Assembly: GCF_044647545.1 (NCBI RefSeq) | Contig: NZ_CP172818.1 | DNA length: 64,000 bases | Reading direction: 5' to 3' (one strand) | Source: Escherichia coli | GTDB taxonomy: Bacteria; Pseudomonadota; Gammaproteobacteria; Enterobacterales; Enterobacteriaceae | Made by a program: the position numbers and the translations under genes | Notes under the pieces: model-generated | Databases searched by the model: none | Seen by the model: only the letters and a program-made list of their open reading frames with translations | What the model was told of the DNA's origin: nothing | Shown here: positions 2,876 to 28,602 of the stretch, one piece after another | Layout of the letters: each line of letters starts with the position of its first letter | Numbering within the stretch: position 1 is the first letter of the stretch

Positions 2876-2899
2876 CCGGATGCGAGTTTTCGCATCCGG
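2876..2899. terminator. 9-bp stem hairpin (CCGGATGCG / CGCATCCGG) between convergent cysS and ybcI; possible bidirectional terminator or REP-like element
   Basis: Perfect inverted repeat seen in sequence; no strong T-run, so terminator role is tentative. Confidence 0.4.
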
Positions 2900-3421
2900 T
2901 TATCGCCTGCGCCACCACAACATTCCCATCAGTAGCATCCCCGGCAACCACACCCACATTAATTCAGAAATAATCACCTGATGCCCGTACGGCGTGGTGT
3001 AACGAGACAATGCAAACGGCGCGACTTTAATCACCTGCCAGGGAGCGAAAAAGCGTTCATCTGACCACGGCCACAGCCAGCCAACCCCTTTACCGCCAGT
3101 GGTTACCGAATCCAGCAAGCTGTGCGATAGCAACGAGACGGTTAAAAACAGCCAGCAGCGAATCAGCCCAGCCCTGAACCATCGACGTCCAATCAGCACA
3201 CATAACAGCGGGACAACAAACGCAAACACCAACGAATGGGTAAACCCGCGATGACCAAAAACATTGCCGTAAGCAACGCCAAATTTAAATGACAATACGT
3301 CGGCATCGGGCAGCATCGCCAGGACGATTCCGGCAAATAACAGGCGCGGAGGGATGACTTTTGAACCCAACCCTAAACCAATGCAAAGGGGAACGGCGGC
3401 GTGCGTAATAACGGTTGGCAT
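2900..3421 (-). CDS. ybcI: inner-membrane metal-dependent hydrolase family protein YbcI
   Basis: 173-aa hydrophobic ORF; recognised sequence and gene order. Confidence 0.8.
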   Translation of the reverse strand: MPTVITHAAVPLCIGLGLGSKVIPPRLLFAGIVLAMLPDADVLSFKFGVAYGNVFGHRGFTHSLVFAFVVPLLCVLIGRRWFRAGLIRCWLFLTVSLLSHSLLDSVTTGGKGVGWLWPWSDERFFAPWQVIKVAPFALSRYTTPYGHQVIISELMWVWLPGMLLMGMLWWRRR

Positions 3422-10723: not shown

Positions 10724-11356
10724 TTATATTAATTCATATAATTTGGCGTAGTCGATAAGCTCTACAATTGAATGCAAACCTAGCTTGCCATAAATATTAG
10801 ATTTATGTGCACTAACTGTTTTATTGCTAAGTAATAACTTATCGGCAATTTCTTTATTAGATAATCCGCTAACCAGATAACGTAATATGGTTACTTCACG
10901 ATTAGATAGCACAGTGACCGTTGAACTATTCGTACTACATTTATTGCTTTTTATATAGTTGAGCGTTTCGCTGGGAAAAAAAGTGTATCCGGAGAGAATC
11001 ATCTGAACGGCATGAAAAATATCATTCTGATCATTGCATTTACTGACAAAACCGTTAGCACCAGCTTGTATCGCTCTGCCAGCATAAAAGCATTCTGATT
11101 TCGATGATAAAAATAATACTTTCACTGTACTCTGAATTTGTTTGATCCTTTTTAGGAAGGTAAAACCGTCTGTACCGGGCAAGTCTATATCCATAATGAT
11201 TAAATCAACAGGACGGGTTCGGAGATAATCGATGGTTATGCGGTAATCATCCGTTTTCAGGACAATCTGCAATTCACTGTTTTTTTGCAACAGAACTTCA
11301 ATAGACATTCTGATGATAGGATGAGTATCCATAATGATCACCGACGTTGGTTTCAT
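10724..11356 (-). CDS. fimZ: LuxR/FixJ-type response regulator FimZ
   Basis: 210 aa from MKPTSVIIMD; receiver domain plus C-terminal helix-turn-helix. Confidence 0.88.
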   Translation of the reverse strand: MKPTSVIIMDTHPIIRMSIEVLLQKNSELQIVLKTDDYRITIDYLRTRPVDLIIMDIDLPGTDGFTFLKRIKQIQSTVKVLFLSSKSECFYAGRAIQAGANGFVSKCNDQNDIFHAVQMILSGYTFFPSETLNYIKSNKCSTNSSTVTVLSNREVTILRYLVSGLSNKEIADKLLLSNKTVSAHKSNIYGKLGLHSIVELIDYAKLYELI

Positions 11357-11538
11357 AGTTACCAGTCTCATTGGATCGGACAATTTTCCGTTAGGGCGGT
11401 AAATTGTACTTGATACATGAAAATACGGGTTTTCCTGATTCAGACGCGCAGCGGTGTGCGTTTGTTTGCCGCTATAACGAAATAAATCAGAAAATCAGAC
11501 GCGGTCGTTCACTTGTTCAGCAACCAGATCAAAAGCCA

Positions 11539-11566
11539 TTGACTCAGCAAGGGTTGACCGTATAAT
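11539..11566 (+). promoter_or_regulatory. candidate sigma-70 promoter of argU (-35 TTGACT, 16-bp spacer, -10 TATAAT)
   Basis: Near-consensus hexamers about 30 bp upstream of the tRNA 5' end. Confidence 0.5.
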
Positions 11567-11597
11567 TCACGCGATTACACCGCATTGCGGTATCAAC

Positions 11598-11674
11598 GCG
11601 CCCTTAGCTCAGTTGGATAGAGCAACGACCTTCTAAGTCGTGGGCCGCAGGTTCGAATCCTGCAGGGCGCGCCA
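11598..11674 (+). tRNA. argU: tRNA-Arg (anticodon UCU), ending in CCA
   Basis: 77-nt sequence GCGCCCTTAGCTCAGTTGGATAGAGCAACGACCTTCTAAGTCGTGGGCCGCAGGTTCGAATCCTGCAGGGCGCGCCA; cloverleaf-compatible; recognised argU. Confidence 0.95.
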
Positions 11675-11689
11675 TTACAATTCAATCAG

Positions 11690-12853
11690 TTACGCCTTCT
11701 TTATATCCTCCATAATTCCAGAGTGGGACATATTTGGGACATTATCACCAAAAATGTCGTCTATTTTCCTCGCATGCTCTGTCAAATGATTAGGCGCAAG
11801 GTGAGCATACCTACGAACCATTTCTATGGACTCCCATCCGCCCATTTCCTGAAGCACTGATAATGGGACGCCTGACTGAATCAGCCAGCTTGCCCAGGTG
11901 TGTCTGAGGTCATGGAAACGGAAATCTTCAATTCCTGCACGACGACAAGCTGATAGCCATGATGTCTTGCTGTCGATGCGCATCTTCCTGACCGCAGGCG
12001 TTGATGTTCCATCTGCTCGCTTAGCCGCCTTGGTATGTACAAACACCCATTTGTGATGCTTGCCTATTTGATCACGCAACACTTTACAGGCGGTATCGTT
12101 CAGCGCCACACCAATGGCGCGGTTTGATTTGCTCTCTTCTGGATTCACCCAGGCAACTCGTCGCTGCATGTCGATTTGTTGCCATTCCAGATTTATGATG
12201 TTCGACTTTCTCAGACCAGTTGCCAGCGCAAACTTGACGACAGATTTCAGTGGTTCGGGGCACTCATCAATAAGGCGTTTTGCTTCCTCCTTTTCCAGCC
12301 ATCTGACTCGCTTGTTTCTGACCGCTGGTATCTTGATGACAGGCGCTTTTTCCAGCCACTTCCAGTCGCGTTCTGCAGCACGGAGAATGGCCTTTATCAT
12401 GGCAAGATGCTTTGCCTTTGTCTGAGTTGATACTGGCTTTGGTTCATAAACAGGCAGTTCTTTACCTTTCCTGATGGCGGCCTGAACTTTCTGTTTCCAT
12501 ATTTCTTTCGTCTTTCTGTTATGCATTCTGCTTACAGCAGAGTAAATCTTTGCCTCCGAGATATCTTTAAGCCTTATACCCTCAAAATGTTCAAGCCAGA
12601 ACTCAATCCGGCTTTTATCTGAATCGAGAGATTTTTTATCAGCTTTTTCCTCAAGCCATCTTAGGCAGGCCTCTTCAAAAGTGACATCAGGTAAATCCCC
12701 TAGCTTTTCTACTCGCCAGAGTTCTGCTTTTCGCTTGTCGTGCAACTCCTGAGCTTGCCGCTTGTCCTTTGTGCCAAGAGATTCCTTAATTCGTTTCCCG
12801 CCCGGGAGCGAATACGAGGCATACCATATTTCATTTCTGCGGAAGAGTGACAT
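11690..12853 (-). CDS. intD: prophage tyrosine integrase
   Basis: 387-aa ORF 15 bp downstream of the tRNA; C-terminal R..HxxR..Y catalytic region ([13 protein letters not shown]). Confidence 0.9.
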
Positions 12854-12972
12854 TTTCTTTCCTCTGTTATGCCATCACCCGCGCTCACCTGGACAGTATG
12901 CAGCGGAGACTGAAGCGCCGCAATGCAGGCTTGCCGTGTTGTGAGGTACCCGGATATTATCGTGAGGATGCG

Positions 12973-13311
12973 TCATCGCCATTGCTCCCCAAATACAAAA
13001 CCAATTTCAGCCAGTGCCTCGTCCATTTTTTCGATGAACTCCGGCACCATCTCGTCAAAACTCGCCATGTACTTTTCATCCCGCTCAACCACGACATAAT
13101 GCAGTCCTTCACGCTTCATACGCGGGTCATAGTTGGCAAAGTACCAGGCATCTTTTCGTGTCACCCACATGCTGTACTGCACCTGGGCCATGTAAGCCGA
13201 CTTTATGGCCTCGAAACCACCGAGCCGGAACTTCATGAAATCCCGGGAGGTACGAGTATTGCCGGAAGCGCGGGCTGTATCCGGATGCAGAGTCTTATCC
13301 GTGGAAATCAA
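12973..13311 (-). pseudogene. exoD: lambda exonuclease (Exo) C-terminal fragment
   Basis: 112-aa ORF whose sequence ([50 protein letters not shown]...GFVFGEQWR) corresponds to the C-terminal part of lambda Exo only. Confidence 0.7.
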
Positions 13312-13349
13312 ACGCGCACTACTGGCTGGTTACCAACCTGTATCAGAAC

Positions 13350-13562
13350 ATGCGGGCCAATGCGTTGACTGACGCGGAATTACGGCGCAAGGCTGCCGAT
13401 GAACTGTCCTGTATGACCGCACGAATTAACCGTGGTGAGGCTATACCTGAACCAGTAAAACAACTTCCTGTCATGGGCGGTAGACCTCTAAATCGTGCAC
13501 AGGCTCTGGCGAAGATCGCAGAAATCAAAGCTAAGTTTGGGCTGAAAGGAGCAAGGGTATGA
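13350..13562 (+). pseudogene. peaD: lambda replication protein P C-terminal fragment
   Basis: 70-aa ORF ending ...AEIKAKFGLKGARV, matching the end of lambda P; no N-terminal part present. Confidence 0.6.
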
Positions 13563-13716
13563 CGGGCAAAGAGGCAATTATTCATTACCTGGGGACTCAT
13601 AAGAAATTCTGTGCGCAGGACGTTGCCGCGGTAACAGGCGCAACGGTAATCTGATCTTACCCAGCAATAGTGGACACGCGGCTAAGTGAGTAAACTCTCA
13701 GTCAGAGGTGACTCAC

Positions 13717-14016
13717 ATGACAAAAACAGTATCAACCAGTAAAAAACCCCGTAAACAGCATTCGCCTGAATTTCGCAGTGAAGCCCTGAAGCTTGCTGAA
13801 CGCATCGGTGTTACTGCCGCAGCCCGTGAACTCAGCCTGTATGAATCACAACTCTACAACTGGCGCAGTAAACAGCAAAATCAGCAGACGTCTTCTGAAC
13901 GTGAACTGGAGATGTCTACCGAGATTGCACGTCTCAAACGCCAGCTGGCAGAACGGGATGAAGAGCTGGCTATCCTCCAAAAGGCCGCGACATACTTCGC
14001 GAAGCGCCTGAAATGA
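13717..14016 (+). CDS. insE: IS3 OrfA (transposase N-terminal, helix-turn-helix)
   Basis: 99 aa from [15 protein letters not shown]; recognised IS3 OrfA. Confidence 0.88.
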
Positions 14017-14879
14017 AGTATGTCTTTATTGAAAAACATCAGGCTGAGTTCAGCATCAAAGCAATGTGCCGCGTGCTCCGGGTGGCCCGCAGCGGCTGGT
14101 ATACGTGGTGTCAGCGGCGGACAAGGATAAGCACGCGTCAGCAGTTCCGCCAACACTGCGACAGCGTTGTCCTCGCGGCTTTTACCCGGTCAAAACAGCG
14201 TTACGGTGCCCCACGCCTGACGGATGAACTGCGTGCTCAGGGTTACCCCTTTAACGTAAAAACCGTGGCGGCAAGCCTGCGCCGTCAGGGACTGAGGGCA
14301 AAGGCCTCCCGGAAGTTCAGCCCGGTCAGCTACCGCGCACACGGCCTGCCTGTGTCAGAAAATCTGTTGGAGCAGGATTTTTACGCCAGTGGCCCGAACC
14401 AGAAGTGGGCAGGAGACATCACGTACTTACGTACAGATGAAGGCTGGCTGTATCTGGCAGTGGTCATTGACCTGTGGTCACGTGCCGTTATTGGCTGGTC
14501 AATGTCGCCACGCATGACGGCGCAACTGGCCTGCGATGCCCTGCAGATGGCGCTGTGGCGGCGTAAGAGGCCCCGGAACGTTATCGTTCACACGGACCGT
14601 GGAGGCCAGTACTGTTCAGCAGATTATCAGGCGCAACTGAAGCGGCATAATCTGCGTGGAAGTATGAGCGCAAAAGGTTGCTGCTACGATAATGCCTGCG
14701 TGGAAAGCTTCTTTCATTCGCTGAAAGTGGAATGTATCCATGGAGAACACTTTATCAGCCGGGAAATAATGCGGGCAACGGTGTTTAATTATATCGAATG
14801 TGATTACAATCGGTGGCGGCGGCACAGTTGGTGTGGCGGCCTCAGTCCGGAACAATTTGAAAACAAGAACCTCGCTTAG
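14013..14879 (+). CDS. insF: IS3 OrfB transposase (DDE catalytic domain; normally made as an OrfAB fusion by -1 frameshift)
   Basis: 288-aa ORF overlapping insE; recognised IS3 OrfB. Confidence 0.88.
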
Positions 14880-15189
14880 GCCTGTGTCCATATTACGTGG
14901 GTAGGATCAACCAGCATAAATCAGGCTGCGGCTAAAATGGCACGGGCAGGTCTTCTGGCTATCGAAGGTAAGGTCTGGCGAACGGTGTATTACCGGTTTG
15001 CTACCAGAGAAGAACGGGAAGGAAAGGTGAGCACGAATCTGATTTTTAAGGAGTGTCGCCAGAGTGCCGCGATGAAACGGGTATTGAGGGTATATAAAAG
15101 AACATCAATGGGTACACAATGATGAAACAGGTGAGTTGAGTTCAAACTGTAGTACAATTCTCTCCAGTTTGAACAGGAAAGAATATTCT

Positions 15190-15522
15190 ATGAACCCTTA
15201 TATTTATCTTGGTGGTGCAATACTTGCAGAGGTCATTGGTACAACCTTAATGAAGTTTTCAGAAGGTTTTACACGGTTATGGCCATCTGTTGGTACAATT
15301 ATTTGTTATTGTGCATCATTCTGGTTATTAGCTCAGACGCTGGCTTATATTCCTACAGGGATTGCTTATGCTATCTGGTCAGGAGTCGGTATTGTCCTGA
15401 TTAGCTTACTGTCATGGGGACTTTTCGGCCAACGGCTGGACCTGCCAGCCATTATAGGCATGATGTTGATTTGTGCCGGTGTGTTGGTTATTAATTTATT
15501 GTCACGAAGCACACCACATTAA
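15190..15522 (+). CDS. emrE: small multidrug resistance efflux transporter EmrE
   Basis: 110 aa from MNPYIYLGGAILAEVIGTTLMK, four transmembrane helices, conserved Glu in the first helix. Confidence 0.9.
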   Translation: MNPYIYLGGAILAEVIGTTLMKFSEGFTRLWPSVGTIICYCASFWLLAQTLAYIPTGIAYAIWSGVGIVLISLLSWGLFGQRLDLPAIIGMMLICAGVLVINLLSRSTPH

Positions 15523-15553
15523 AAATAATTTGTTTCTAAACGACTAAAATATG

Positions 15554-15586
15554 GAGGCTCTTATATTTATATGAGCCTCGTTTTAT
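15554..15586 (+). terminator. candidate rho-independent terminator after emrE
   Basis: GAGGCTC / GAGCCTC stem with AT-rich loop followed by GTTTTATGCTTTTT. Confidence 0.45.
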
Positions 15587-15778
15587 GCTTTTTGTTAATG
15601 TCTTTATTTTTTTATGTATTCTTTTGTGCTTTCAAGATTATGGCGTAAGAAAATTGCAATACGATTATTGTTGTATATTCAAGATAATGTGACCTTAATT
15701 GTCTTTTTAAATAAAAATTAAACAAAAATTATATCCCACCACTAAGGTTTATAAAAGCATACGTTAGCAGGTGTCACC

Positions 15779-17305
15779 ATGAAAAAAGCCATAGCATATA
15801 TGCGATTTTCATCACCAGGTCAGATGTCTGGCGACTCATTAAACCGACAGAGAAGACTTATTGCTGAATGGTTAAAGGTAAATAGTGATTATTATCTTGA
15901 TACCATAACATATGAAGATTTAGGATTAAGTGCATTCAAAGGAAAGCATGCACAATCAGGAGCTTTTTCGGAATTTTTAGATGCTATAGAGCATGGTTAT
16001 ATATTGCCAGGAACTACATTGTTAGTTGAAAGTCTGGACAGACTTTCAAGAGAAAAAGTCGGTGAAGCGATTGAACGTCTGAAATTGATTTTGAATCACG
16101 GTATTGATGTTATAACTCTTTGCGACAATACAGTCTATAATATTGACTCTTTGAATGAGCCATATTCATTAATAAAAGCCATACTTATAGCACAAAGGGC
16201 AAATGAAGAAAGCGAGATAAAGTCAAGTCGGGTTAAATTATCATGGAAGAAAAAACGGCAGGATGCACTGGAATCAGGTACGATTATGACGGCGTCTTGT
16301 CCGAGATGGCTCTCCTTAGATGACAAAAGAACGGCTTTTGTTCCAGACCCCGACAGGGTGAAAACTATTGAGCTAATTTTTAAACTCAGGATGGAAAGGC
16401 GCTCATTGAATGCAATAGCCAAGTATTTAAATGATCATGCTGTAAAGAATTTCTCAGGAAAAGAAAGTGCATGGGGACCTTCTGTAATTGAAAAATTATT
16501 AGCGAATAAAGCTCTGATAGGTATATGCGTACCTTCATATCGTGCAAGAGGTAAAGGAATAAGTGAAATCGCTGGCTATTATCCCAGAGTCATATCAGAT
16601 GATTTGTTTTACGCTGTACAGGAAATTCGGTTGGCACCTTTTGGTATTAGCAATAGTAGCAAAAATCCTATGTTGATAAATCTACTTCGAACAGTTATGA
16701 AGTGCGAGGCTTGTGGTAATACCATGATTGTTCATGCGGTATCTGGAAGTTTGCATGGCTATTATGTTTGTCCGATGAGAAGACTGCATCGATGTGACAG
16801 GCCATCAATAAAGAGAGATTTGGTTGATTATAATATCATTAATGAGTTGCTTTTTAATTGTAGTAAAATCCAACCAGTTGAAAACAAGAAAGATGCTAAT
16901 GAAACTTTAGAGTTGAAAATTATTGAGCTCCAGATGAAAATTAATAATTTAATTGCTGCATTATCTGTTGCGCCTGAAGTTACCGCTATAGCAGAAAAAA
17001 TCAGAGTATTAGATAAGGAATTACGAAGGGCTTCTGTATCATTAAAAACTTTGAAGAGTAAAGCGGTGAGTTCACTTGGTGATTTTCATGCTATTGACTT
17101 AACCAGTAAAAATGGGCGAGAGCTATGTCGTACACTTGCCTATAAAACATTCGAAAAAATCATAATCAATACAGATAATAAAACCTGTGATATCTATTTT
17201 ATGAATGGCATTGTTTTTAAACACTATCCTTTAATGAAAACAATATCCGCCCAGCAGGCGATAAGTACTCTCAAATATATGGTTGATGGTGAGGTTTATT
17301 TTTGA
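15779..17305 (+). CDS. ybcK: large serine recombinase family protein
   Basis: 508-aa ORF; N-terminal resolvase-like catalytic motif (AYMRFSSPGQ), central recombinase domain, Cys-rich zinc ribbon (CEACGN...CPMRRLHRCD), C-terminal coiled-coil-like region. Confidence 0.85.
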   Translation: MKKAIAYMRFSSPGQMSGDSLNRQRRLIAEWLKVNSDYYLDTITYEDLGLSAFKGKHAQSGAFSEFLDAIEHGYILPGTTLLVESLDRLSREKVGEAIERLKLILNHGIDVITLCDNTVYNIDSLNEPYSLIKAILIAQRANEESEIKSSRVKLSWKKKRQDALESGTIMTASCPRWLSLDDKRTAFVPDPDRVKTIELIFKLRMERRSLNAIAKYLNDHAVKNFSGKESAWGPSVIEKLLANKALIGICVPSYRARGKGISEIAGYYPRVISDDLFYAVQEIRLAPFGISNSSKNPMLINLLRTVMKCEACGNTMIVHAVSGSLHGYYVCPMRRLHRCDRPSIKRDLVDYNIINELLFNCSKIQPVENKKDANETLELKIIELQMKINNLIAALSVAPEVTAIAEKIRVLDKELRRASVSLKTLKSKAVSSLGDFHAIDLTSKNGRELCRTLAYKTFEKIIINTDNKTCDIYFMNGIVFKHYPLMKTISAQQAISTLKYMVDGEVYF

Positions 17306-17499
17306 GTAATAATCTTTTTTACGTCGTGCTATAGTAAGAAAGTGCAAGACAGAATTAATTATCTTTGACGAAACTTAATGGGTAATTACTTTGTTTGCTC
17401 CCACAAGCGAGTTTTGTACGGCTGTATTGGGGTAGTAAATGAGCTATACAATCTTAATCATTTGTTAGGTGAGAACTCTTGGTCGCAGATTCAAATACT

Positions 17500-17549
17500 G
17501 AAAATACGTGACAAATTATTATGAGCAAAATGGTGTATGTCACGTATTT
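17500..17549. repeat. 13-bp perfect inverted repeat pair (AAAATACGTGACA ... TGTCACGTATTTT) separated by 24 bp
   Basis: Seen directly in the ybcK-ybcL intergenic region. Confidence 0.6.
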
Positions 17550-17762
17550 TGAATGGTAGGTTAAAAAATAACACCGACTTTCGTAGGTATTACTAATAAT
17601 AAAGCAGAGTTTTTAGATAGTATCAATGTGCTTTGTGTATATTGTGGCAAATAATTGGGTTGCTGAGGGGTAGAATGTGATTGCTTTTGCATGAACACTT
17701 TATGCATAATGAGATAAAGGAATATCAAATAAAGAACGATAGGTCATAACAAAGAGGTTTTT

Positions 17763-18312
17763 ATGAAAACACTTATCGTTTCAACTGTATTGGCATTCAT
17801 AACATTTTCTGCGCAGGCTGCAGCATTTCAGGTCACTAGTAATGAAATAAAAACAGGAGAGCAACTTACAACGTCTCATGTCTTTCTCGATTTGGGTGTG
17901 AAGGTGGTAATACATCGCCCTCATTAACCTGGTCTGGTGTTCCTGAAGGTACCAAAAGCTTTGCCGTAACTGTATATGATCCAGATGCACCTACAGGCAG
18001 TGGTTGGTGGCATTGGACTGTTGTTAATATTCCAGCAACAGTAACATATTTTCCGTTGATGCAGGGAGACGTGATGGAACAAAACTGCCGACTGGTGCTG
18101 TTCAAGGCCGAAATGATTTTGGCTATGCTGGGTTTGGTGGCGCATGTCCTCCTAAAGGAGATAAACCACATCATTACCAGTTTAAAGTATGGGCTCTAAA
18201 AACTGAAAAGATTCCTGTAGATTCTAACTCCAGCGGAGCGTTAGTTGGTTATATGCTTAATGCTAATAAAATCGCAACCGCTGAGATAACACCAGTTTAT
18301 GAGATAAAGTAG
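17763..18312 (+). pseudogene. ybcL: periplasmic PEBP/UPF0098 family protein with two frame breaks in this assembly
   Basis: Signal peptide MKTLIVSTVLAFITFSAQA; the protein is recovered across three frames with shifts near 17884 (T-run) and 18054 (C-run); corrected length would be 183 aa. Confidence 0.7.
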
Positions 18313-18321
18313 GGTGAGAGT

Positions 18322-19119
18322 ATGCTGGCAAGAGGTAAGACTAACTTAAAGATCGAAGAAATACGGATGCATAAACATCATGAGATTCATAGGGTTAAGC
18401 CTCTTATGCCAGCTTTGTGTCGTATCCGTCAGGGAAAGAAAGTTATCAATTGGGAGACGCATACTTTAACTGTTGATAATAATCAAATAATATTATTTCC
18501 TTGTGGTTATGAATTTTATATTGAGAATTATCCTGAAGCAGGGCTTTATCTTGCAGAAATGCTTTACTTACCCATTGATTTAATTGAGAGTTTCCAAAAA
18601 CTTTATACGGTAACTGATCAAATACGTAACAAAACAAGTTTCTTTTTACCTCAGAATCCTGAGTTAATATATTGTTGGGAGCAACTAAAAACATCTGTTT
18701 CCCGAGGCTTCTCAACTAAAATTCAGGAGCACTTAGCAATGGGCGTTCTACTTTCGTTAGGAGTGAATCATGTTAATCATTTACTTTTATCATATAGTAA
18801 ACAATCATTGATAAGTCGTTGTTATAACCTGCTGCTATCCGAACCCGGCACAAAATGGACAGCAAACAAGGTTGCTCGATATCTCTACATTTCTGTTTCT
18901 ACATTACATCGCCGTCTAGCAAGCGAGGGGGTAAGTTTCCAAAGTATACTGGACGATGTGAGGTTAAATAATGCGTTGTCTGCTATACAAACGACGGTAA
19001 AACCTATAAGCGAGATTGCCAGAGAAAATGGTTATAAGTGTCCTTCTCGTTTTACTGAAAGATTTCATAATCGTTTTAATATAACACCAAGAGAGATAAG
19101 AAAAGCTTCCAGAGAGTAA
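18322..19119 (+). CDS. ybcM: AraC-family transcriptional regulator
   Basis: 265-aa ORF with C-terminal AraC-type helix-turn-helix. Confidence 0.85.
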
Positions 19120-19235
19120 AAGTGTTTTAAGAAGGAGCAATTCTATCGATTTTGATTTGCGATAATCAACTCGCCATAATCATGTCATCGGAGCCTGAAC
19201 AACTCCGGTGACTTCTGCGCTAAACGGGGACGTTT

Positions 19236-19337
19236 ATGCGCACACACAATCCAAACTCTCTTCTCCCTCCACAGATGCAGAAATGCACCTGCGATATATT
19301 GTATCCAGCGTTTGACCTCTGCGGAGGTGAAGCGTGA
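19236..19337 (+). CDS. ylcH: small prophage ORF (33 aa)
   Basis: Short [36 protein letters not shown] ending 4 bp into ybcN; small size, low certainty. Confidence 0.35.
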
Positions 19338-19789
19338 ATCTCCCACAAGATGGCATCAAATTACATCGCGGTAACTTCACCGCTATCGGTCGGCAGATCC
19401 AGCCTTATCTGGAGGAGGGCAAATGCTTTCGCATGGTGCTTAAACCGTGGCGTGAGAAACGCAGTCTTTCCCAGAATGCACTCAGCCACATGTGGTACAG
19501 CGAAATCAGTGAATACCTCATCAGCAGGGGTAAAACGTTCGCTACTCCAGCTTGGGTAAAAGATGCTCTCAAACACACATATCTCGGTTATGAAACCAAA
19601 GACCTGGTTGATGTCGTAACCGGTGATATCACCACTATCCAGTCGTTACGCCATACCTCCGATCTTGATACCGGAGAGATGTATGTCTTCCTGTGTAAGG
19701 TTGAAGCCTGGGCGGTGAATATTGGCTGCCACCTGACTATTCCGCAGAGCTGCGAGTTCCAGCTGCTCCGCGACAAGCAGGAGGCGTAA
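19334..19789 (+). CDS. ybcN: NinB-like prophage protein
   Basis: 151-aa ORF with apparent GTG start; position ahead of ninE/rusA in a lambda nin-like region. Confidence 0.8.
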
Positions 19790-19959
19790 TGGCTACACCG
19801 CTTATTCGTGTCATGAACGGACACATCTACAGAGTACCAGATCGTCGTAAGCGTAAACCGGAGCTGAAGCCTTCCGAAATACCAACACTGCTCGGATATA
19901 CCGCCAGCCTGGTTGATAAAAAATGGTTGCGACTGGCAGCAAGGAGGAATCATGGCTGA
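19789..19959 (+). CDS. ninE: NinE-family prophage protein (56 aa)
   Basis: [26 protein letters not shown]... overlapping ybcN stop; below ORF-track size cutoff. Confidence 0.6.
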   Translation: MATPLIRVMNGHIYRVPDRRKRKPELKPSEIPTLLGYTASLVDKKWLRLAARRNHG

Positions 19960-20242
19960 TTTGAGAAAAGCAGCGCGTAGTCGGGAATGCCAGGTAAGAA
20001 TCCCTGGCGTATGTAATGGCAACCCTGAAACGTCTGTACTGGCACATATCCGGCTGACTGGATTGTGCGGCACCGGTACCAAACCGCCAGACCTGATTGC
20101 CACCATTGCATGTTCTGCCTGCCACGACGAAATCGACCGCCGCACACATTTTGTCGATGCTGCATATGCAAAAGAATGCGCGCTGGAAGGTATGGCGAGA
20201 ACACAGGTTATCTGGCTGAAAGAGGGGGTTATTAAGGCGTGA
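19952..20242 (+). CDS. ybcO: prophage protein YbcO (Cys-rich, 96 aa)
   Basis: 96 aa from [10 protein letters not shown]; conserved nin-region position. Confidence 0.75.
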
Positions 20243-20601
20243 ATACCTACAGCATCACATTACCCTGGCCTCCGAGCAATAATCGCTATTACCGCCATAA
20301 TCGCGGGCGCACGCACGTCAGCGCAGAGGGGCAGGCATACCGCGATAACGTCGCCCGAATCATTAAAAACGCAATGCTGGATATCGGCCTGGCTATGCCT
20401 GTGAAAATCCGCATTGAGTGCCACATGCCGGATCGCCGTCGCCGTGACCTGGATAATCTGCAAAAAGCCGCTTTTGACGCACTCACTAAAGCAGGTTTCT
20501 GGCTGGATGATGCTCAGGTCGTTGATTACCGCGTTGTGAAGATGCCTGTTACCAAAGGTGGGAGGCTGGAACTGACCATCACCGAAATGGGGAATGAATG
20601 A
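20239..20601 (+). CDS. rusA: Holliday junction resolvase RusA
   Basis: 120-aa [21 protein letters not shown]...; recognised RusA. Confidence 0.9.
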
Positions 20602-20738
20602 TGTTTGAGTTTTATATGGCAGAACGTCTTCGCCACCGCTGGGGGCGTCTGCGCTTATATCGTTTCCCCGGTTCTGTTTTGACCGATTACCGAATACTGA
20701 AGAATTACGCCAAAACCCTGACAGGAGCAGGAGTATGA
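20598..20738 (+). CDS. ylcG: small prophage ORF (46 aa)
   Basis: [26 protein letters not shown]... overlapping rusA stop; verified codon by codon. Confidence 0.45.
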
Positions 20739-20823
20739 AGTCAGAGATAACAATCAACTAATACTGTTTCGTTGATTTTTGCTTGTAATTGGCGTTCTGG
20801 TCTGATTTTTGTGGAGTAAGTTG

Positions 20824-21207
20824 ATGCGTGATATTCAGATGGTTCTTGAGCGTTGGGGAGCGTGGGCGGCTAATAATCATGAAGATGTGACCTGGTCGTC
20901 CATTGCCGCCGGTTTTAAGGGATTAATTACTTCAAAAGTAAAATCTCGCCCACAATGTTGTGACGATGACGCGATGATCATTTGCGGGTGCATGGCCCGT
21001 CTGAAAAAGAACAACAGCGATTTGCATGATTTATTGGTGGACTATTATGTCGGCGGCATGACTTTTATGGCGCTTGCACGTAAGCATGGGCGATCTGATT
21101 GTTGGGTTGGCAGGATGCTTCAGAAAGCTGAGGGCGTAGTGGAGGGTATGCTGATGGTGTTGGATCTCCGATTGGAGATGGATGTCGTTGTTAATAACTC
21201 TAATTAA
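20824..21207 (+). CDS. quuD: Q-family late-gene antiterminator
   Basis: 127 aa from [18 protein letters not shown]; immediately upstream of a hairpin-rich regulatory region. Confidence 0.8.
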
Positions 21208-21229
21208 TATGCCAATTGTTTACTAAAAA

Positions 21230-21390
21230 TTATTAAAAATGGGGCGTTGAGACGCCCCCAAAAATAAAGGGTAATATATAACAGAAGGTTTATATAGTTA
21301 GAAGCAAGGTTGTGCTTCTAAAGGAAGTGGCTTGAGGGAGCCACTTATATGTTGGGGAGGCAACGCCTCCCGCAACATATCTTTTTCGTA
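21230..21390 (+). promoter_or_regulatory. late regulatory region downstream of Q (candidate pR'/qut and short-transcript terminator)
   Basis: Several GC hairpins (GGGGCG..CGCCCC; AAGTGGC..GCCACTT; GGGAGGC AAC GCCTCCC followed by ...CTTTTT). Confidence 0.3.
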
Positions 21391-21458
21391 ATCAGATTAG
21401 AACTGGTAAACCAGACCTACAGCAACGATGTCATCAGTGCTTACACCGAGTGCTTTAG

Positions 21459-22653
<1,195 letters not shown>

Positions 22654-23683
22654 TTAGTGAAGTCATTTTTGTCAAGCAGGTTGATTTTGTAATCAACGAA
22701 AGTAGACATATTTTTGTTGAAGTAATAGGTTGCACCTACATCAACATATTTGACTAAGTCCTGATCGCCCCATACTCCAAGATCCTTACCTTTAGATTGC
22801 AGGTAAGCAACGGACGGACGCAGACCGAAATCGAACTGATATTGTGCAACAGCTTCGAAGTTTTGGGCTTTATTAGCAACGAAGTGATCAGCAAATACAG
22901 TCATATTCTGGGTTTCAGAATAGGTAGTGGCCAGGTAAATGTTGTTAGCGTCATATTTCAGACCTGCGGCCCAAACTTCTGCATTTTTACCGGAAGCAAA
23001 TACTTCAGGAAGAACTTTCCCTGCATTAACTTGAGTGTCGGTACGATCAGATTTCGCATAAGTTGCACCGATACCGAATCCTTCGTATTCATAGGTAGCA
23101 GAGAAACCGAAGCCATCACCGTTACCTTCAGTGTAGTTATCGAAATCGCTACGATCGTTTTTGCCTTGGTACTGAATCGCAAAATCAAGACCATCAACCA
23201 GGCCAAGAAATCATAGTTACGGTAGGTTGCAACACCGTTGGTACGACCATTCATGAAGTTGTCAGCGGAAGCCCAGGAATCGCCACCCCATTCAACTAAC
23301 ATATCGGTATAAGCTGCGGCATCATAAGCAACACCGTAGTTACGGCCATAGTCAAATGACCACTCGTTATATTTCAAACCGGCGAAGGTTAAACGGGTTT
23401 TTTCCTGGTTTTCACCTTCGGGCTTGCTGGCGTCGAGGTTGTATTCAAACTGACCAAAACCAGTCAGTTCGCTGGTGATTTGGGTTTCACCTTTGAAGCC
23501 AAGACGGGCATAAGTAGTATCACCATCATCTGCATCATTAGAGGAGAAGTAGTGCTTAGCATTAACTTTCCCGTACAGATCCAGCTTGTTACTGTCTTTA
23601 TTATAAATTTCAGCTGCCTGAGCAGACATCGCCATTAGTACTGATGCAGCTACAGCAGAAATTGCCACTGTTAATTTTTTCAT
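22654..23683 (-). pseudogene. nmpC: OmpC-family outer-membrane porin, truncated at the 3' end by IS5 and carrying an internal single-base frame break near 23205
   Basis: Signal peptide [23 protein letters not shown]; porin sequence reads YRNYDF then shifts frame, then continues in frame to the IS5 junction (last residues EGANKSLI come from IS5). Confidence 0.8.
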
Positions 23684-24258
23684 CGTGAGCCCTTTTTTTG
23701 AACTATTATTAAAAAATGATGTCACTGCGCGATAAATATTCATCTAATCAATGTGATTATTTCAAGATGTAAGTTTTGGTTTCTCGTTTGATTTGTGAAG
23801 TAGATCTCTATTTTTATCTGAACTTTTTTCTATCGAATCCTATTCATGGCTCTTGGCTGAATAAAAATAAATCTATTAGCCAATTTATATTAACGGCTGT
23901 TATTTATAAGTGCTCTATAATTTGAAGGTTCAATTTAAACCGGCTAAAAATAACACTGGAAATTATTTTTTGGTTATTTGTTGAGATTTGCTTATGTATT
24001 TGTAGTGGTGTTTTCAATACTCGGTAGCATTCTCTCAAATATCATTTAGTGGTTTACGTACGTAAAAAATTGGTTATGCTGTTAAGAGTGGTTACTTCGT
24101 CACACAGCTTAAACCCGCCGTCGAGCGGGTTTTTCCATTTTTTGAGTCTCGATATTAGCTGATAACCCAATACCTGAGTTATTCACTGACTCCGAGTCTG
24201 TTACGTTTCGTAGTATTCCCTCAATTTACACCCATCCGTTATTTGCGGAGGTGAGGCT

Positions 24259-24474
24259 ATGAAATCCATGGATAAGTTAACAACGGGCATTGCCTACGGC
24301 ACCTCCGCAGGCAGTGCTGGCTACTGGTTTTTACAGCTGCTCGATAAAGTCACGCCCTCACAGTGGGCAGCAATAGGTGTGCTGGGTAGCTTGGTATTTG
24401 GCCTGCTGACGTACCTGACAAACCTTTATTTCAAGATTAAAGAAGATAAGCGCAAGGCTGCGAGAGGTGAATAA
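24259..24474 (+). CDS. essD: phage holin (71 aa)
   Basis: Two hydrophobic segments and charged C-terminus; first gene of the lysis cassette. Confidence 0.85.
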
Positions 24475-24971
24475 TGCCTCCATCATTACGAAAAGCCGTT
24501 GCTGCTGCTATTGGTGGCGGAGCAATTGCTATAGCATCAGTGTTAATCACTGGCCCAAGTGGTAACGATGGTCTGGAAGGTGTCAGCTACATACCATACA
24601 AAGATATCGTTGGCGTATGGACTGTATGTCACGGGCATACAGGAAAAGACATCATTCCCGGTAAAACGTATACCGAAGCAGAATGCAAAGCCCTCCTGAA
24701 TAAAGACCTTGCCACGGTAGCCAGACAAATTAACCCGTACATCAAAGTCGATATACCGGAAACAACGCGCGGCGCTCTTTACTCGTTCGTCTATAACGTG
24801 GGCGCAGGCAATTTCAGAACATCTACTCTTCTTCGCAAAATAAACCAGGGCGATATCAAGGGCGCATGTGACCAGCTACGTCGCTGGGCATACGCTGGCG
24901 GTAAGCAATGGAAAGGCCTGATGACTCGTCGTGAGATTGAGCGTGAGGTCTGTTTGTGGGGGCAACAATGA
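24474..24971 (+). CDS. rrrD: phage endolysin (lysozyme family)
   Basis: 165-aa ORF overlapping holin stop; N-terminal signal-anchor-like segment. Confidence 0.85.
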
Positions 24972-25342
24972 GCAGAGTCACCGCGATTATCTCCGCTCTG
25001 GTTATCTGCATCATCGTCTGCCTGTCATGGGCTGTTAATCATTACCGTGATAACGCCATCGCCTACAAAGAACAGCGCGATAAAAAAGTCAGTGAGCTGA
25101 AGCAGGCGACCGCCACCATTACTGACATGCAGCAGCGCCAGCGTGATGCTGATGCACTCGATGCTAAATACACGAAGGAGTTAGCTGATGCGAAAGCTGA
25201 AAATGATGCTCTTCGGCGCAAGCTTGATAATGGTGGTCGGGTGCTCGTCAAAGGAAAATGCCCTGTGCCATCCTCAGCCGAAACCTCCAGCGCCTCCGGC
25301 ATGGGCAATGATGCCACCGTCGAACTCAAAGACCGAGAATAA
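24968..25342 (+). CDS. rzpD: Rz-like inner-membrane spanin subunit (reading frame as it stands in this sequence)
   Basis: N-terminal transmembrane segment [21 protein letters not shown], coiled-coil-like region; frame terminates at 25342 while the following Rz-like C-terminal peptide lies in the +1 frame. Confidence 0.6.
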
Positions 25343-25445
25343 AAACTATCCAGTTAGCGACGAATATCTGGACCCAATTATCGCGACCAAAACAGCACTG
25401 AGAACGCTTCAGGAATTCATCAGGACGCAATGTCCTTCGAGATAG
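25188..25445 (+). CDS. rzoD: Rz1-like outer-membrane lipoprotein spanin subunit, +1 frame inside and extending beyond the Rz frame
   Basis: [12 protein letters not shown] lipobox, proline-rich PKPPAPPAW; true C-terminus uncertain. Confidence 0.45.
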
Positions 25446-25602
25446 CGATTATTTTACTCATCATTCCCTTCACATCTGGCTCTGTAGACAGTTCACTTCT
25501 GAAATCCAATAAACATCTCATTCTGATGCTTGATATTGAGCATTTTGCGCGCGGTAAGGGGCTGCGTTGAGATAAGAACCAGTAAAAATAAACCAGGATT
25601 TA

Positions 25603-25625
25603 GCCTCGCATTCGCGGGGCTTTTT
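25603..25625 (+). terminator. candidate rho-independent terminator of the lysis operon
   Basis: GCCTCGC ATTC GCGGGGC hairpin (7-bp stem with one G-U pair) followed by TTTTT. Confidence 0.5.
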
Positions 25626-25709
25626 ATTGCCATTACAAAAGCCACTTCCTACAGAGTGGCTTTGATAATGGTTTATACCCTACACGGGATAACTTAACTG
25701 ATATCCCTT

Positions 25710-25874
25710 TTAAAGGATAAAGGTATTCAAGCCTGACACATCATGCGCTGTATCGTCGCCGTATTCCCGTATTAACAGAGACCGTAGCCCGACGGGGAAC
25801 TCCTTCTGCGCGAGTGTGCGGGAATAATCAAAAACGATGCACACCGGGGTTACCGGGTACACATATTTCATCAT
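25710..25874 (-). CDS. hypothetical small ORF (54 aa)
   Basis: ORF MMKYVYPVTPVCIVFDYSRTLAQKEFPVGL...; no recognisable family; below ORF-track cutoff. Confidence 0.2.
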   Translation of the reverse strand: MMKYVYPVTPVCIVFDYSRTLAQKEFPVGLRSLLIREYGDDTAHDVSGLNTFIL

Positions 25875-25919
25875 GCCAGCGAGTCCGGTTCTGGCACGGA
25901 AGAAACCGGACGTTATGAT

Positions 25920-26330
25920 TTAGTGCGGAAATATTTGTGTAGTGTTCTGAATGTTCTCAGTAAAGAGTAATGAATTATCAAAGGTATAGTAATACCTTTT
26001 GTTTTCGTGGATATTTGTAATCCATCTGAAAACCCCTGCTGTAGCAAGATTTTTCCTGTATTCGTAAAATGATAACTCTCCTGATTTGAATCCTTTTAAG
26101 GTGGCTTCTATAAGGCATTTATTTTTTGAAAATCTTACATTTACAACCTTACCCTGTCCTTTTATTAAAACCGTATTATCGTTTTCAAGAACAAGATGAA
26201 TATTCTCTGTAGCTAAATAGTAAATGTAATGTGAGACATTGTGACGTTTTAGTTCAGAATAAAACCAGTGATAGTTTAAATTATTTCGCACTTTATCGAA
26301 TATTTGTTTAAAAATGGCAACCTGAGCCAT
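25920..26330 (-). CDS. ybcV: prophage protein YbcV (DUF1398-like)
   Basis: 136 aa from [31 protein letters not shown]. Confidence 0.75.
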
Positions 26331-26662
26331 TGTGGTACCTTCCATGTGATATGAGGGGCGTAGTCTGCACGATTATCTAAATTGCTTCAATCTGGTCTGA
26401 TTTTTGAGAATTTAAATAAGCAGATTAGAAGGGAAACGCTGAAATTCATGTTGTTTTCAATAAACAAAGAATGGACGAAAAATCATAAAGACAATACTGC
26501 CAGGACAGGTTAAAAACTATCTTAATACACATTCGATGGTTAGATGTTTAATCATGTATAGAACATCATACCTAAAATACTAAAAGCAAAAGAAACGAAG
26601 GAATCCTCTATAATTAATCTATCAAAGAAGAGAATACGTATCTGACTAAGAGACTAATCAAC

Positions 26663-26896
26663 TCAGCAATCCTCGTATTTAGGGAATACAATACGTCCAG
26701 TGTCACTCTTTTCTTTGTTTGCTTCAGGAGAAACTCTTTTTTCTGAGCACAGTCTCCGGCGGCAGGCTTCAATGACCCAGGCTGAGAAATTCCCGGACCC
26801 TTTTTGATCAAGAGCGATGTTAATTTGTTCAATCATTTGGTTAGGAAAGCGGATGTTGCGGATTGTTGTTCTGCGGGTTCTGTTCTTCGTTGACAT
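26663..26896 (-). CDS. ylcI: small DNA-binding-like prophage protein (YlcI/DUF3950-like)
   Basis: 77-aa ORF MSTKNRTRRTTIRNIRFPNQMIEQINIALDQKGSGNFSAWVIEACRRRL; start codon uncertain. Confidence 0.5.
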   Translation of the reverse strand: MSTKNRTRRTTIRNIRFPNQMIEQINIALDQKGSGNFSAWVIEACRRRLCSEKRVSPEANKEKSDTGRIVFPKYEDC

Positions 26897-27095
26897 GAGG
26901 TTGTCCCGTATTTAGTGTCGCTGATTTGTATTGTCTGAAGTTGTTTTTACGTTAAGTTGATGCAGATCAATTAATATGATACCTGCGTCATAATTGATTA
27001 TTTGACGTGGTTTGATGGCGTAGATGCACGTTGTGACATGCAGATGATAATTATTATCATTTTGCGGGTCCTTTCCGGCGATCCGACAGGTTACG

Positions 27096-27107
27096 GGGCG
27101 GCGACCT
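27096..27107 (+). other. lambda-type cosN cohesive-end sequence GGGCGGCGACCT
   Basis: Exact lambda cohesive-end 12-mer preceded by GATCCGACAGGTTACG; CGTTTCC/GGAAACG repeats (terminase small-subunit binding elements) lie between it and nohD. Confidence 0.8.
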
Positions 27108-27284
27108 CGCGGGTTTTCGCTATTTATGAAAAATTTCCGGTTTAAGGCGTTTCCGTTCTTCTTCGTCATAACTTAATGTTTTTATTTAAAATACCCTCTG
27201 AAAAGAAAGGAAACGACAGGTGCTGAAAGCGAGCTTTTTGGCCTCTGTCGTTTCCTTTCTCTGTTTTTGTCCGTGGAATGAACA

Positions 27285-27830
27285 ATGGAAGTCAACAAAA
27301 AGCAGCTGGCTGACATTTTCGGTGCGAGTATCCGTACCATTCAGAACTGGCAGGAACAGGGAATGCCCGTTCTGCGAGGCGGTGGCAAGGGTAATGAGGT
27401 GCTTTATGACTCTGCCGCCGTCATAAAATGGTATGCCGAAAGGGATGCTGAAATTGAGAACGAAAAGCTGCGCCGGGAGGTTGAAGAACTGCGGCAGGCC
27501 AGCGAGGCAGATCTCCAGCCAGGAACTATTGAGTACGAACGCCATCGACTTACGCGTGCGCAGGCCGACGCACAGGAACTGAAGAATGCCAGAGACTCCG
27601 CTGAAGTGGTGGAAACCGCATTCTGTACTTTCGTGTTGTCGCGGATCGCAGGTGAAATTGCCAGTATTCTCGACGGGCTCCCCCTGTCGGTGCAGCGGCG
27701 TTTTCCGGAACTGGAAAACCGACATGTTGATTTCCTGAAACGGGATATTATCAAAGCCATGAACAAAGCAGCCGCGCTGGATGAACTGATACCGGGGTTG
27801 CTGAGTGAATATATCGAACAGTCAGGTTAA
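27285..27830 (+). CDS. nohD: terminase small subunit (lambda Nu1 homologue)
   Basis: 181-aa [49 protein letters not shown]...; recognised Nu1 sequence. Confidence 0.9.
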
Positions 27831-28548: not shown

Positions 28549-28602
28549 TCATTGGGATTATGCCGCAGCACGTCTTAAGCAAGAACATGCTGCGGTTGGA
28601 TG

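Follow-up and report, generated by a model that had tools for sequence, protein, structure and literature searches.

The 64,000-nucleotide stretch of Escherichia coli DNA analysed in the current work (hereafter the window) contains a copy of IS3 within ren, and the best explanation of this arrangement, which we hold to be very likely, is that it represents DLP12 renD::IS3 at argU in the K-12 layout, followed by a cargo block that is independent of the IS element, and with an IS3 contribution to emrE that is probably weak. The observation itself is real and is not a chance pattern. It had been made in the initial annotation, which placed IS3 within ren, and the interval concerned, 13559-15122, corresponds exactly to the coordinates of MG1655 renD (b0542), which is likewise split by IS3C. 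An IS3 in ren is thus already known and ordinary, being the insertion annotated in the DLP12 prophage of K-12 just upstream of emrE. The features of the region (in window coordinates) are as follows.

11598-11671, tRNA-Arg gene (argU), identified by Rfam
11690-12853, intD
13251/13252, exo / P deletion junction
13252-13562, + strand, C-terminal fragment of the P gene (peaD pseudogene; Pfam Phage_lambda_P; replication protein P/peaD in K-12)
13559-13651, + strand, ren (renD) fragment 1, 31 codons, 'gene fragment 1 of renD' in MG1655
13649-13651, left target-site duplication copy, with ATC in place of the expected ACC
13652-14909, + strand, IS3, 1258 bp, identical to MG1655 IS3C, sole copy in the window
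13652-13690, + strand, IRL of the IS3 terminal inverted-repeat pair
13717-14016, + strand, orfA (insE), 99 aa, HTH_Tnp_1 (PF01527, E=5.4e-10), insE3 in MG1655
13977-13983, + strand, CCAAAAG, putative slip site with A4G -1 frameshift motif (sequence match)
14013-14879, + strand, orfB (insF), 288 aa, DDE integrase core rve (PF00665, E=5.1e-28)
14871-14909, + strand, IRR of the IS3 terminal inverted-repeat pair
14910-14912, right target-site duplication copy, with ACC
14910-15122, + strand, ren (renD) fragment 2, consisting of 70 codons and a stop codon ('gene fragment 2 of renD' in MG1655)
15190-15522, + strand, emrE, SMR efflux transporter, 110 aa (Pfam Multi_Drug_Res, E=3e-35)

Comparison of the element with MG1655 IS3C returned 0 mismatches over 1258 bp, and its boundaries at 13652 and 14909 bear out the length that it had initially been assigned. 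Both this length and the TG...CA termini are those of the IS3 family (about 1.2-1.5 kb), the terminal inverted repeats being imperfect (39 nt, 72% complementary, TGATC...GATCA) with the sequences TGATCTTACCC... on the left and ...GGGTAGGATCA on the right. The encoded domains are also those of the family, namely an HTH in OrfA and a DDE (rve) core in OrfB, the latter protein giving further Pfam matches to rve_2 (PF13333, E=4.8e-22) and HTH_21. Members of the IS3 family produce their DDE transposase through a -1 frameshift at an A4G motif and transpose via a minicircle intermediate. Here, orfA and orfB overlap by ATGA in phases 0 and -1, as in the two-ORF organization associated with the A4G motif, and the -1 frame is open from 13983 to 14879, which would make an OrfAB fusion possible. 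The PGAP annotation of the IS3 transposase includes the term 'programmed frameshift', and the A4G motif is named for IS3 in PMC8860574. Folding of the RNA 3' of the slip site (13975-14065) revealed no significant structure (z = -1.37), and for this reason a stimulatory pseudoknot is not claimed. At the sequence level IS3 is intact, having retained its two inverted repeats, orfA, the slip site with its A4G motif, and an orfB that is open; it is without any difference from the IS3 of E. coli, only the flanking 3-bp duplication being imperfect. Such an element would move by a copy-out/paste-in process employing the DDE transposase generated by the orfA-orfB -1 frameshift.

The gene interrupted by IS3 is located directly 3' of P, as expected for the Ren family, with the stop codon of the P fragment overlapping the start codon of ren (ATGA, 13562 / 13559), and the order of P followed by ren is common to phage Turner, FDAARGOS_497 and REL606. 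The 5' piece of ren encodes MTGKEAIIHYLGTHKKFCAQDVAAVTGATVI, of which the final codon, ATC, constitutes the left copy of the target duplication, and it is terminated by a TGA formed by bases 1-3 of IS3, while the 3' piece begins TSINQAAAKMARAG.... Genomes without IS3, whichever of the two ren haplotypes they carry (REL606 among them), have GGTAACCAGC as the empty site, with ACC as the target triplet. A 3-bp direct repeat is expected as the target duplication of IS3; the two flanks, ATC and ACC, match at 2 of 3 bases, and given that the empty site is ACC, one post-insertion substitution in the left copy is assumed. As they stand, the two pieces of ren are out of frame, since 1258 equals 3x419+1, and precise removal of the 1258 bp preserves the frame (93 + 213 = 306 bp), while removal of IS3 together with one 3-bp target copy generates a 100-codon ren. 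Many IS3-free genomes match, at 100.0% identity across 650 bp, a construct from which IS3 and the ATC copy were removed. The initial annotation had described a precise insertion flanked by ...GATV and TSINQ; the clean nature of the insertion holds, as excision with one target copy gives a ren identical to natural alleles, but the junction reads ...GATV-I / IS3 / TSINQ, the ATC codon having been overlooked.

The reconstructed 100-aa Ren matches PHROG 142 (E=1.8e-41, residues 1-98) and shares 93-100% identity with proteins annotated as Ren in lambdoid phages (100% with that of phage Turner), thus showing full-length homology to the lambda Ren family (Ren-like exclusion protein); no Pfam model matched the ren fragments. 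Split by IS3 into 31 and 70 codons, ren is not an intact coding sequence and represents a pseudogene. We propose that IS3 inserted at ren codon 30/31 with duplication of the triplet ACC, of which the left copy now reads ATC, and that the insertion would have cut Ren to 31 residues, leaving behind a 70-codon 3' remnant. This would amount to straightforward gene inactivation in a prophage already without its repressor, its promoters and most of its replication genes. Its biological weight is small, the insertion being annotated in the reference E. coli and ren being dispensable in a dead prophage.

In MG1655, renD b0542 with IS3C (insE3/insF3; NC_000913.3, 566684-568247) has the same position, orientation, length, junctions (ATC / IS3 / ACC) and neighbours (peaD upstream and emrE downstream), and the PGAP annotation of the window shows the same renD/IS3 arrangement. 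The first 25,212 nucleotides of the window (1-25212) form a single colinear alignment to MG1655, and the prophage is assigned to DLP12 of the K-12 type by the presence of argU and intD and by colinearity with MG1655 564755-586056 that extends to the deletions and IS elements of that interval. An Rfam scan of 11000-17500 returned only tRNA-Arg and, on the other strand, a chance match below threshold, with no frameshift element and no further RNA family. The window departs from MG1655 in the ren and P DNA flanking IS3, which is 5.6-6% different and has the same sequence as the ren allele found in prophages without IS3.

We consider it likely, if somewhat less firmly than the assignment to DLP12 renD::IS3, that the window is a K-12-templated sequence (a reference-guided consensus or other chimera) of a non-K-12 strain. 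No gaps occur in its alignment to MG1655 over 11410-15520, and the two sequences share the xis/exo and exo / P deletion junctions, the IS3 site and orientation, and the aberrant ATC copy. Between breakpoints, the window shows 100% identity to the argU prophage of FDAARGOS_497, which is intact, and differs from K-12 by 2.6-6%. The closest differences from K-12 come within 7 bp of IS3 on its left and 33 bp on its right, and within 20-21 bp of the exo / P junction on either side. The segments absent from the FDAARGOS_497 prophage (IS3, 18001-19000, 21501-23000 and 28001-29000) have about 0 mismatches to K-12. REL606 possesses the K-12 ren haplotype, yet its ren is intact, its early deletion is another one, and nmpC contains IS1 rather than IS5; the K-12 breakpoints are therefore lineage-specific. 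Among 5426 complete E. coli genomes none has the combination found in the window (best match 98.4%), and a window-specific 40-mer spanning the left junction has no exact match in GTDB representative genomes. The 61-aa ren 3' ORF of the window haplotype was retrieved from 5 public contigs, with IS3 at the ren site in 0 of the 5, and the nmpC stretch 22950-23560 has no natural match above 84%.

Certain features of the window argue against such templating: it is without N or ambiguity codes, it matches the non-K-12 strain exactly in its small indels and in the length of sfmD, where there is a difference of 6 bp, and a few SNPs are present within the K-12-only ybcL segment. Moreover, BS-01, one RefSeq 'complete' genome at least, likewise combines K-12 architecture with divergent alleles, which implies that either such genomes are natural or such assemblies are common. 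Natural recombination was considered as the origin of a K-12 layout combined with non-K-12 sequence and was judged implausible, as conversion tracts would need to end within 7-33 bp of four separate breakpoints. Under templating, the IS3 in ren, the early deletions and the IS5 in nmpC would derive from MG1655, and the isolate itself would carry an intact ren and a fuller prophage, so that the IS elements, deletions and pseudogenes of the window would describe MG1655 and not the isolate. Because the provenance of the window is doubtful, the insertion may not hold for the sequenced isolate, and for users of the window sequence this anomaly outweighs the biology of the insertion. A K-12-templated origin is compatible with DLP12 renD::IS3 as the best explanation of the arrangement.

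The gene emrE is the first of an AT-rich cargo block of 4 kb (emrE-ylcJ-ybcK-ybcL-ybcM; GC 31-40%). IS3 does separate the early remnants (exo', 'P and the ren 5' piece) from everything downstream, as initially described, but it does not adjoin the nin region, since the ren 3' piece and this cargo block intervene. The location of IS3 directly upstream of a foreign-looking AT-rich block could suggest that the element delivered or mobilised the emrE cargo, either as a composite transposon or by IS-mediated capture, a scenario to which we assign a negligible probability. The 64 kb contain one copy of IS3 and a single IRL match when up to 3 mismatches are allowed, the ren 3' remnant separates IS3 from emrE, and the ren-emrE-ybcK junction is present base for base without IS3 in a free phage, an intact prophage and E. 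coli B. A composite transposon carrying emrE was rejected, there being no second IS3 beyond the cargo in the 64 kb. FDAARGOS_497, phage Turner (PP925837) and E. coli B REL606 all have the order O-P-ren-emrE-ybcK with no IS3 in it, and the order P-ren-emrE-small ORF-ybcK of the window is the same in Turner, the argU prophage of FDAARGOS_497 and DLP12 of REL606. Unlike in the window, ren is an intact 100-codon gene in all three. After removal of IS3, Ren and the DNA upstream of emrE in the window are 100% identical to those of Turner and FDAARGOS_497, and the three sequences do not differ at any of the 291 bp that run from the site of insertion into emrE. Across complete genomes, an uninterrupted ren-emrE arrangement was found in 1059 versus 306 with the IS3-bearing arrangement. 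The downstream cargo was thus not brought in by IS3.

The initial annotation had further noted that the transposase genes are co-directional with emrE, which is correct (orfA, orfB and emrE are all on the + strand), and had suggested that they could supply outward promoter activity. The comparison with IS3-free variants that it proposed as a check gave an intact ren and identical DNA upstream of emrE. As the same 280 bp of upstream DNA is present in IS3-free phages and prophages, emrE would not need IS3 for its expression. The sequence elements relevant to this question are the following.

14784-14810, + strand, outward promoter-like pair within IS3, TTTAAT-15 nt-TACAAT, corresponding to Fuqua and Wagner's hotspots 14 and 15 (PMC12095673)
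14828-14858, + strand, P3R boxes TTGGTG (14828) ... CAATTT (14853), published IS3 outward promoter
15131-15158, + strand, weak pair resembling a promoter, GTGAGT-16 nt-TACAAT, located 32 bp 5' of the emrE start codon
15140-15174, + strand, perfect 10-bp inverted repeat GTTCAAACTG / CAGTTTGAAC, bracketing the proximal -10 box

The emrE start codon is 280 bp away from the end of IS3 and about 325 nt away from the putative P3R start site. The outward-facing boxes near the IS3 end were identified by sequence match, and none of them reaches the standard consensus threshold. Both standard and relaxed scans returned no consensus promoter across or 3' of the right junction, and no hybrid promoter across 14909/14910 (-35 in IRR and -10 in the flank, 16-18 bp). 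The promoter-like pair proximal to emrE scores under the standard-scan threshold and does not vary among relatives that lack IS3, and folding of the emrE leader palindrome was no better than that of shuffled sequence (z = -0.42). A terminator scan of 13300-15800 found none, nor any hairpin with a T-run between orfB and emrE. The SMRT-Cappable-seq supplements contain no mention of emrE, insF or ybcK, a phrase search for literature on an emrE promoter or transcript returned only the two paraquat studies, and the 'IS3' matches in PMC9783932 turned out to be IS30, matched by prefix.

An outward promoter of IS3 is an old idea that restates a property published in 1982. As cited in PMC12095673 and PMC8860574, P3R was described by Charlier, Piette and Glansdorff (1982) as activating argE, and the account of IS3 in PMC8860574 gives the element two promoters in the same direction, of which P3R, there termed a 'strong' outward promoter with reference to the 1982 argE work, faces outward in the same sense as the transposase genes. 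The boxes in the window are the same as in the argE 'mobile promoter' case and have the same orientation to the downstream gene; in contrast to that case, emrE starts 280 bp past the IS3 end and keeps its native upstream DNA, and no activation phenotype or transcript is known for it. More recently, the wild-type 150-bp right end of IS3 was found to have no detectable reporter activity, none of the functional hotspots overlapped with the boxes of Charlier et al., promoters in the IS3 backbone were detectable only at ≤150 bp from the reporter, and the last 50 bp of IS3 repressed transcription about 1.9-fold via a pause or rut-like site (Fuqua and Wagner 2025, PMC12095673).

In view of the above, we regard it as unlikely that IS3 acts as a mobile promoter whose P3R or transposase-promoter transcripts cross the ren remnant and materially express emrE-ybcK. 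The published P3R faces outward and its boxes are correctly oriented here, the interval from orfB to emrE is free of terminator-like hairpins with a T-run, and every upstream phage promoter has been deleted from the prophage of the window. Against this stand the silence of the wild-type IS3 right end in a reporter and a detection range of 150 bp compared to the 280 bp found here, as well as a leader of about 325 nt that would be largely untranslated and hence probably exposed to Rho, and upstream DNA that is the same in IS3-free relatives. Furthermore, K-12 carries IS3C and still needs new IS1 insertions or an about 42-fold amplification to raise emrE. Slightly more improbable is a domesticated IS3C promoter that gives basal transcription of emrE and ybcK-ybcM, by read-through or from P3R, in DLP12 of the K-12 type, and still less likely is that position 90 of ren is an IS3 hotspot hit independently on two ren haplotypes. 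Within the preferred reading, DLP12 renD::IS3 with an independent cargo, the element may add some emrE transcription through read-through from its left-end promoter or from P3R at its right end, a contribution that is probably weak.

The better-documented effect of IS3 on emrE is that of a substrate for regional rearrangement and amplification. In K-12 under paraquat, emrE was raised by new IS1 insertions just upstream of the gene or by the about 42-fold amplification mentioned above, and the paraquat-selected amplification was attributed to the flanking insEF3, IS3 being proposed as its cause. The copy number and expression of emrE, which encodes a model multidrug transporter, shift readily under selection.

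The insertion of IS3 in ren is real and was read correctly in the initial annotation but for one codon; it is also already known and of low interest. The 1258-bp element lies between the 5' and 3' pieces of ren, and 13559-15122 is the exact extent of renD (b0542) in E. coli K-12 MG1655 (NC_000913.3), a gene annotated as a pseudogene in two fragments around 'insertion sequence:IS3C'. The corresponding features are as follows.

13559-13651, + strand: ren 5' piece, with product MTGKEAIIHYLGTHKKFCAQDVAAVTGATVI and a TGA stop contributed by the IS3 terminus
13652-14909: IS3, 1258 bp, with 39-nt imperfect inverted repeats at both ends (TGATCTTACCC... and ...GGGTAGGATCA)
13717-14016, + strand: orfA, HTH_Tnp_1 (E=5.4e-10)
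13977, + strand: A4G slip site CCAAAAG, after which the -1 frame is open up to 14879
14013-14879, + strand: orfB, rve (E=5.1e-28), also rve_2 and HTH_21
14910-15122, + strand: ren 3' piece, beginning TSINQAAAKMARAG

The IS3 gene is labelled by PGAP as an IS3 transposase with programmed frameshift, and the element shows 0 mismatches to IS3C of MG1655. Judged on its sequence, it has all features looked for in IS3, save a perfect 3-bp duplication. It is the only IS3 copy in the 64-kb window, on which ground a composite transposon was considered and rejected.

IS3 is flanked by GGTAATC on its left and ACCAGC on its right. An in-silico construct from which both IS3 and the ATC triplet had been removed was compared with complete E. 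coli genomes, and showed 100.0% identity with many of these over 650 bp (e.g. FDAARGOS_497, ST648 and MS6198); the empty site is therefore GGTAACCAGC. As read from this site, the original target triplet is ACC, and the left target copy, ATC, is one base off it in K-12 and the window alike. Restored ren comprises 100 codons; its product hits PHROG 142 ('Ren-like exclusion protein') at E=1.8e-41 and shows 100% identity with the Ren protein of Escherichia phage Turner. The host gene has the properties of a lambda-type ren, although in pseudogene form. The claim of a precise insertion thus holds in that ren is restored without IS3 and one target copy, but the proposed junction (...GATV, IS3, TSINQ) misses an Ile codon because the left target copy is present beside IS3. 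In contig JATAPL010000065.1 (1-200) of GCA_036915955.1, which carries the ren haplotype of the window, the terminus of another multi-copy IS3-family element adjoins ren at approximately codon 4 while the K-12 IS3 site is uninterrupted (GGTAACCAGC), so that IS elements have inserted in ren independently of one another.

The window covers the argU/DLP12 region, is colinear with MG1655 from 553133 on, and the locus is DLP12 in its K-12 arrangement. The features upstream of ren are, in order, argU, intD (- strand), a C-terminal fragment of exo (- strand) and a C-terminal fragment of gene P, the stop codon of which overlaps the ren start codon. The ren remnant is followed 3' by an AT-rich block (≈15.1-19.15 kb, GC 31-40%) of emrE, ylcJ, ybcK, ybcL and ybcM, and the nin-type region begins only past it (ylcH, ybcN, ninE, ybcO, rusA, quuD). 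IS3 does lie between the early fragments and the nin region, as initially described, but does not adjoin the latter, since the AT-rich cargo is interposed. Within this block (15100-19150), ybcK encodes a serine recombinase, and the right part varies, being ybcL/ybcM in K-12 and E. coli B REL606, and a gene for a P22 AR C-terminal domain in FDAARGOS_497 and Turner.

The comparison with IS3-free variants proposed in the initial annotation could be made. The order P-ren-emrE-small ORF-ybcK occurs without IS3 in the argU prophage of FDAARGOS_497, which appears to be complete, in the 48-kb genome of Turner and in DLP12 of REL606, where ren is intact. Over 291 bp, from the insertion point into emrE, the window, FDAARGOS_497 and Turner agree at every base; the only differences of K-12 over this stretch are in the coding sequence of ren and at a single base ahead of the emrE start codon. 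Among 5426 complete genomes searched, the ren-emrE junction is uninterrupted in 1059, the IS3-bearing arrangement being present in 306. Therefore, the cargo was not brought by IS3, and the DNA upstream of emrE was left unchanged by it. REL606 can serve as a natural control without IS3 for the expression of emrE; its DLP12 (535000-575000) has decayed independently, with a DNA methyltransferase fragment fused to the P fragment, IS1 in the porin gene and the tail-fibre genes kept.

The combination of layout and sequence in the window raises the question of its provenance. From 11410 to 15520 the window aligns base by base with MG1655 without gaps, and both share the following breakpoints.

12947/8: xis/exo junction
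13251/2: exo/P junction
13651/2 and 14909/10: both IS3 junctions, ATC copy included

Mismatches to K-12 number 24/400 in the P fragment plus ren 5' piece, 0/1258 in IS3 and 12/213 in the ren 3' piece, the differences closest to IS3 being 7 bp to its left and 33 bp to its right. Between the breakpoints, every segment matches the intact FDAARGOS_497 prophage at 100%, as the left-hand chromosome matches that strain, and segments absent from this prophage are practically identical to K-12 (IS3, 18001-19000, 21501-23000 and 28001-29000; 23501-24000 also counts among the K-12-identical blocks of 11410-29000). The window has the exact layout of MG1655, with FDAARGOS_497-type sequence at 100% wherever such a strain has homologous DNA and K-12 sequence elsewhere; in our view its most likely origin is a reference-guided consensus, or a chimera, templated on K-12. 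REL606 shares the ren haplotype of K-12 (3 differences) and has ren intact, an early-region deletion of another kind, and in nmpC an IS1 where K-12 has IS5; the K-12 breakpoints are therefore lineage-specific, which favours templating. Three further checks point the same way: a window-specific junction 40-mer was not found in GTDB representatives; the 61-aa ORF in the 3' piece of ren was found in five public contigs only, none with IS3 at the ren site; and the 5' part of nmpC (22950-23560, 611 bp) has a best natural full-length match of 84.3% among the 5426 genomes, with 98 differences to K-12 in 500 bp between blocks of 0 differences. Variants of porin paralogues may have been joined into a mosaic here, which would fit a mapping artefact. 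For 13200-15700 the best full-length match among the same genomes is 98.4%, the top matches listed being K-12-like, and none of the 5426 has the window's combination of layout and sequence. Of the four Logan contigs, the one aligned was SRR33736372 (≈2885-3190), a public short-read contig with the window's ren haplotype. Here ren is contiguous with P, with a gene call for its 61-aa 3' ORF only; 1 bp is missing at position 42 of ren, which could be a real frameshift or an error of the assembly.

Two points speak against templating: ambiguity codes are absent from the window, and K-12 architecture is combined with divergent alleles in BS-01 too, which RefSeq lists as a 'complete' genome. In this chicken isolate (NZ_CP172816.1, 534500-575000) the DLP12 layout of K-12 is complete, with IS3 in ren and IS5 in nmpC; many genes are frameshifted, and alleles diverge from K-12 and the window alike. 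Its assembly, too, may have been templated on K-12. A natural origin, which we rate as less likely than templating, needs the same set of four rearrangements to have arisen on another haplotype, or conversion tracts each ending within 7-33 bp of a breakpoint. If the window is K-12-templated, IS3 in ren describes MG1655 and not the isolate.

As initially noted, orfA, orfB and emrE are co-directional (+ strand). The further suggestion of outward promoter activity is an old, published idea: IS3 carries two promoters of one direction, P3L at its left end and the outward-facing P3R (Kanai et al., PMC8860574, citing Charlier et al. 1982), with P3R boxes TTGGTG/CAATTT and an additional pair, TTTAAT-15-TACAAT (Fuqua and Wagner, PMC12095673). 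These occur at 14828/14853 and 14784/14805, respectively, with one copy of each in the terminal 150 bp at the right end of the element; as far as sequence goes, the putative outward promoter is represented only by these published boxes. No terminator-like site was found from orfB to emrE, which is in favour of read-through. Several results speak against a material effect. A standard scan gave no consensus promoter from 14771 to the emrE start codon (15190), and a relaxed scan gave no -35/-10 pair spanning the right IS3 junction, whereby a hybrid promoter was rejected.

In a 2025 massively parallel assay (PMC12095673) the wild-type 150-bp IS3 right end was selected as being without detectable promoter activity, the Charlier boxes overlapped no functional hotspot, removal of the last 50 bp raised expression ≈1.9-fold (attributed by the authors to a pause or rut site), and on the IS3 backbone a promoter was detectable only at ≤150 bp from the reporter. 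The emrE start codon lies 280 bp from the IS3 end and ≈325 nt from the putative P3R start site. Paraquat-adapted K-12, carrying the same IS3, has been reported with the emrE region amplified ≈42-fold, which was attributed to flanking insEF3, with an insertion of 9 bp located 39 bp upstream of emrE, or with IS1 insertions upstream of emrE and measurably higher emrE mRNA. Together, the paraquat, reporter and scan results point to a low basal expression of emrE in the presence of IS3C; IS3-driven transcription of emrE is plausible, and any effect would be weak on present evidence.

The sole promoter-like pair close to emrE, GTGAGT-16-TACAAT (15131-15158), is invariant in the IS3-free relatives. 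A perfect 10-bp inverted repeat (15140-15174, arms at 15140 and 15165, GTTCAAACTG...CAGTTTGAAC), invariant in K-12, FDAARGOS_497 and Turner, surrounds its TACAAT box 32 bp upstream of emrE; its predicted fold was not significant, and a role as operator or as mRNA hairpin is conceivable. The published 9-bp insertion falls within this repeat region.
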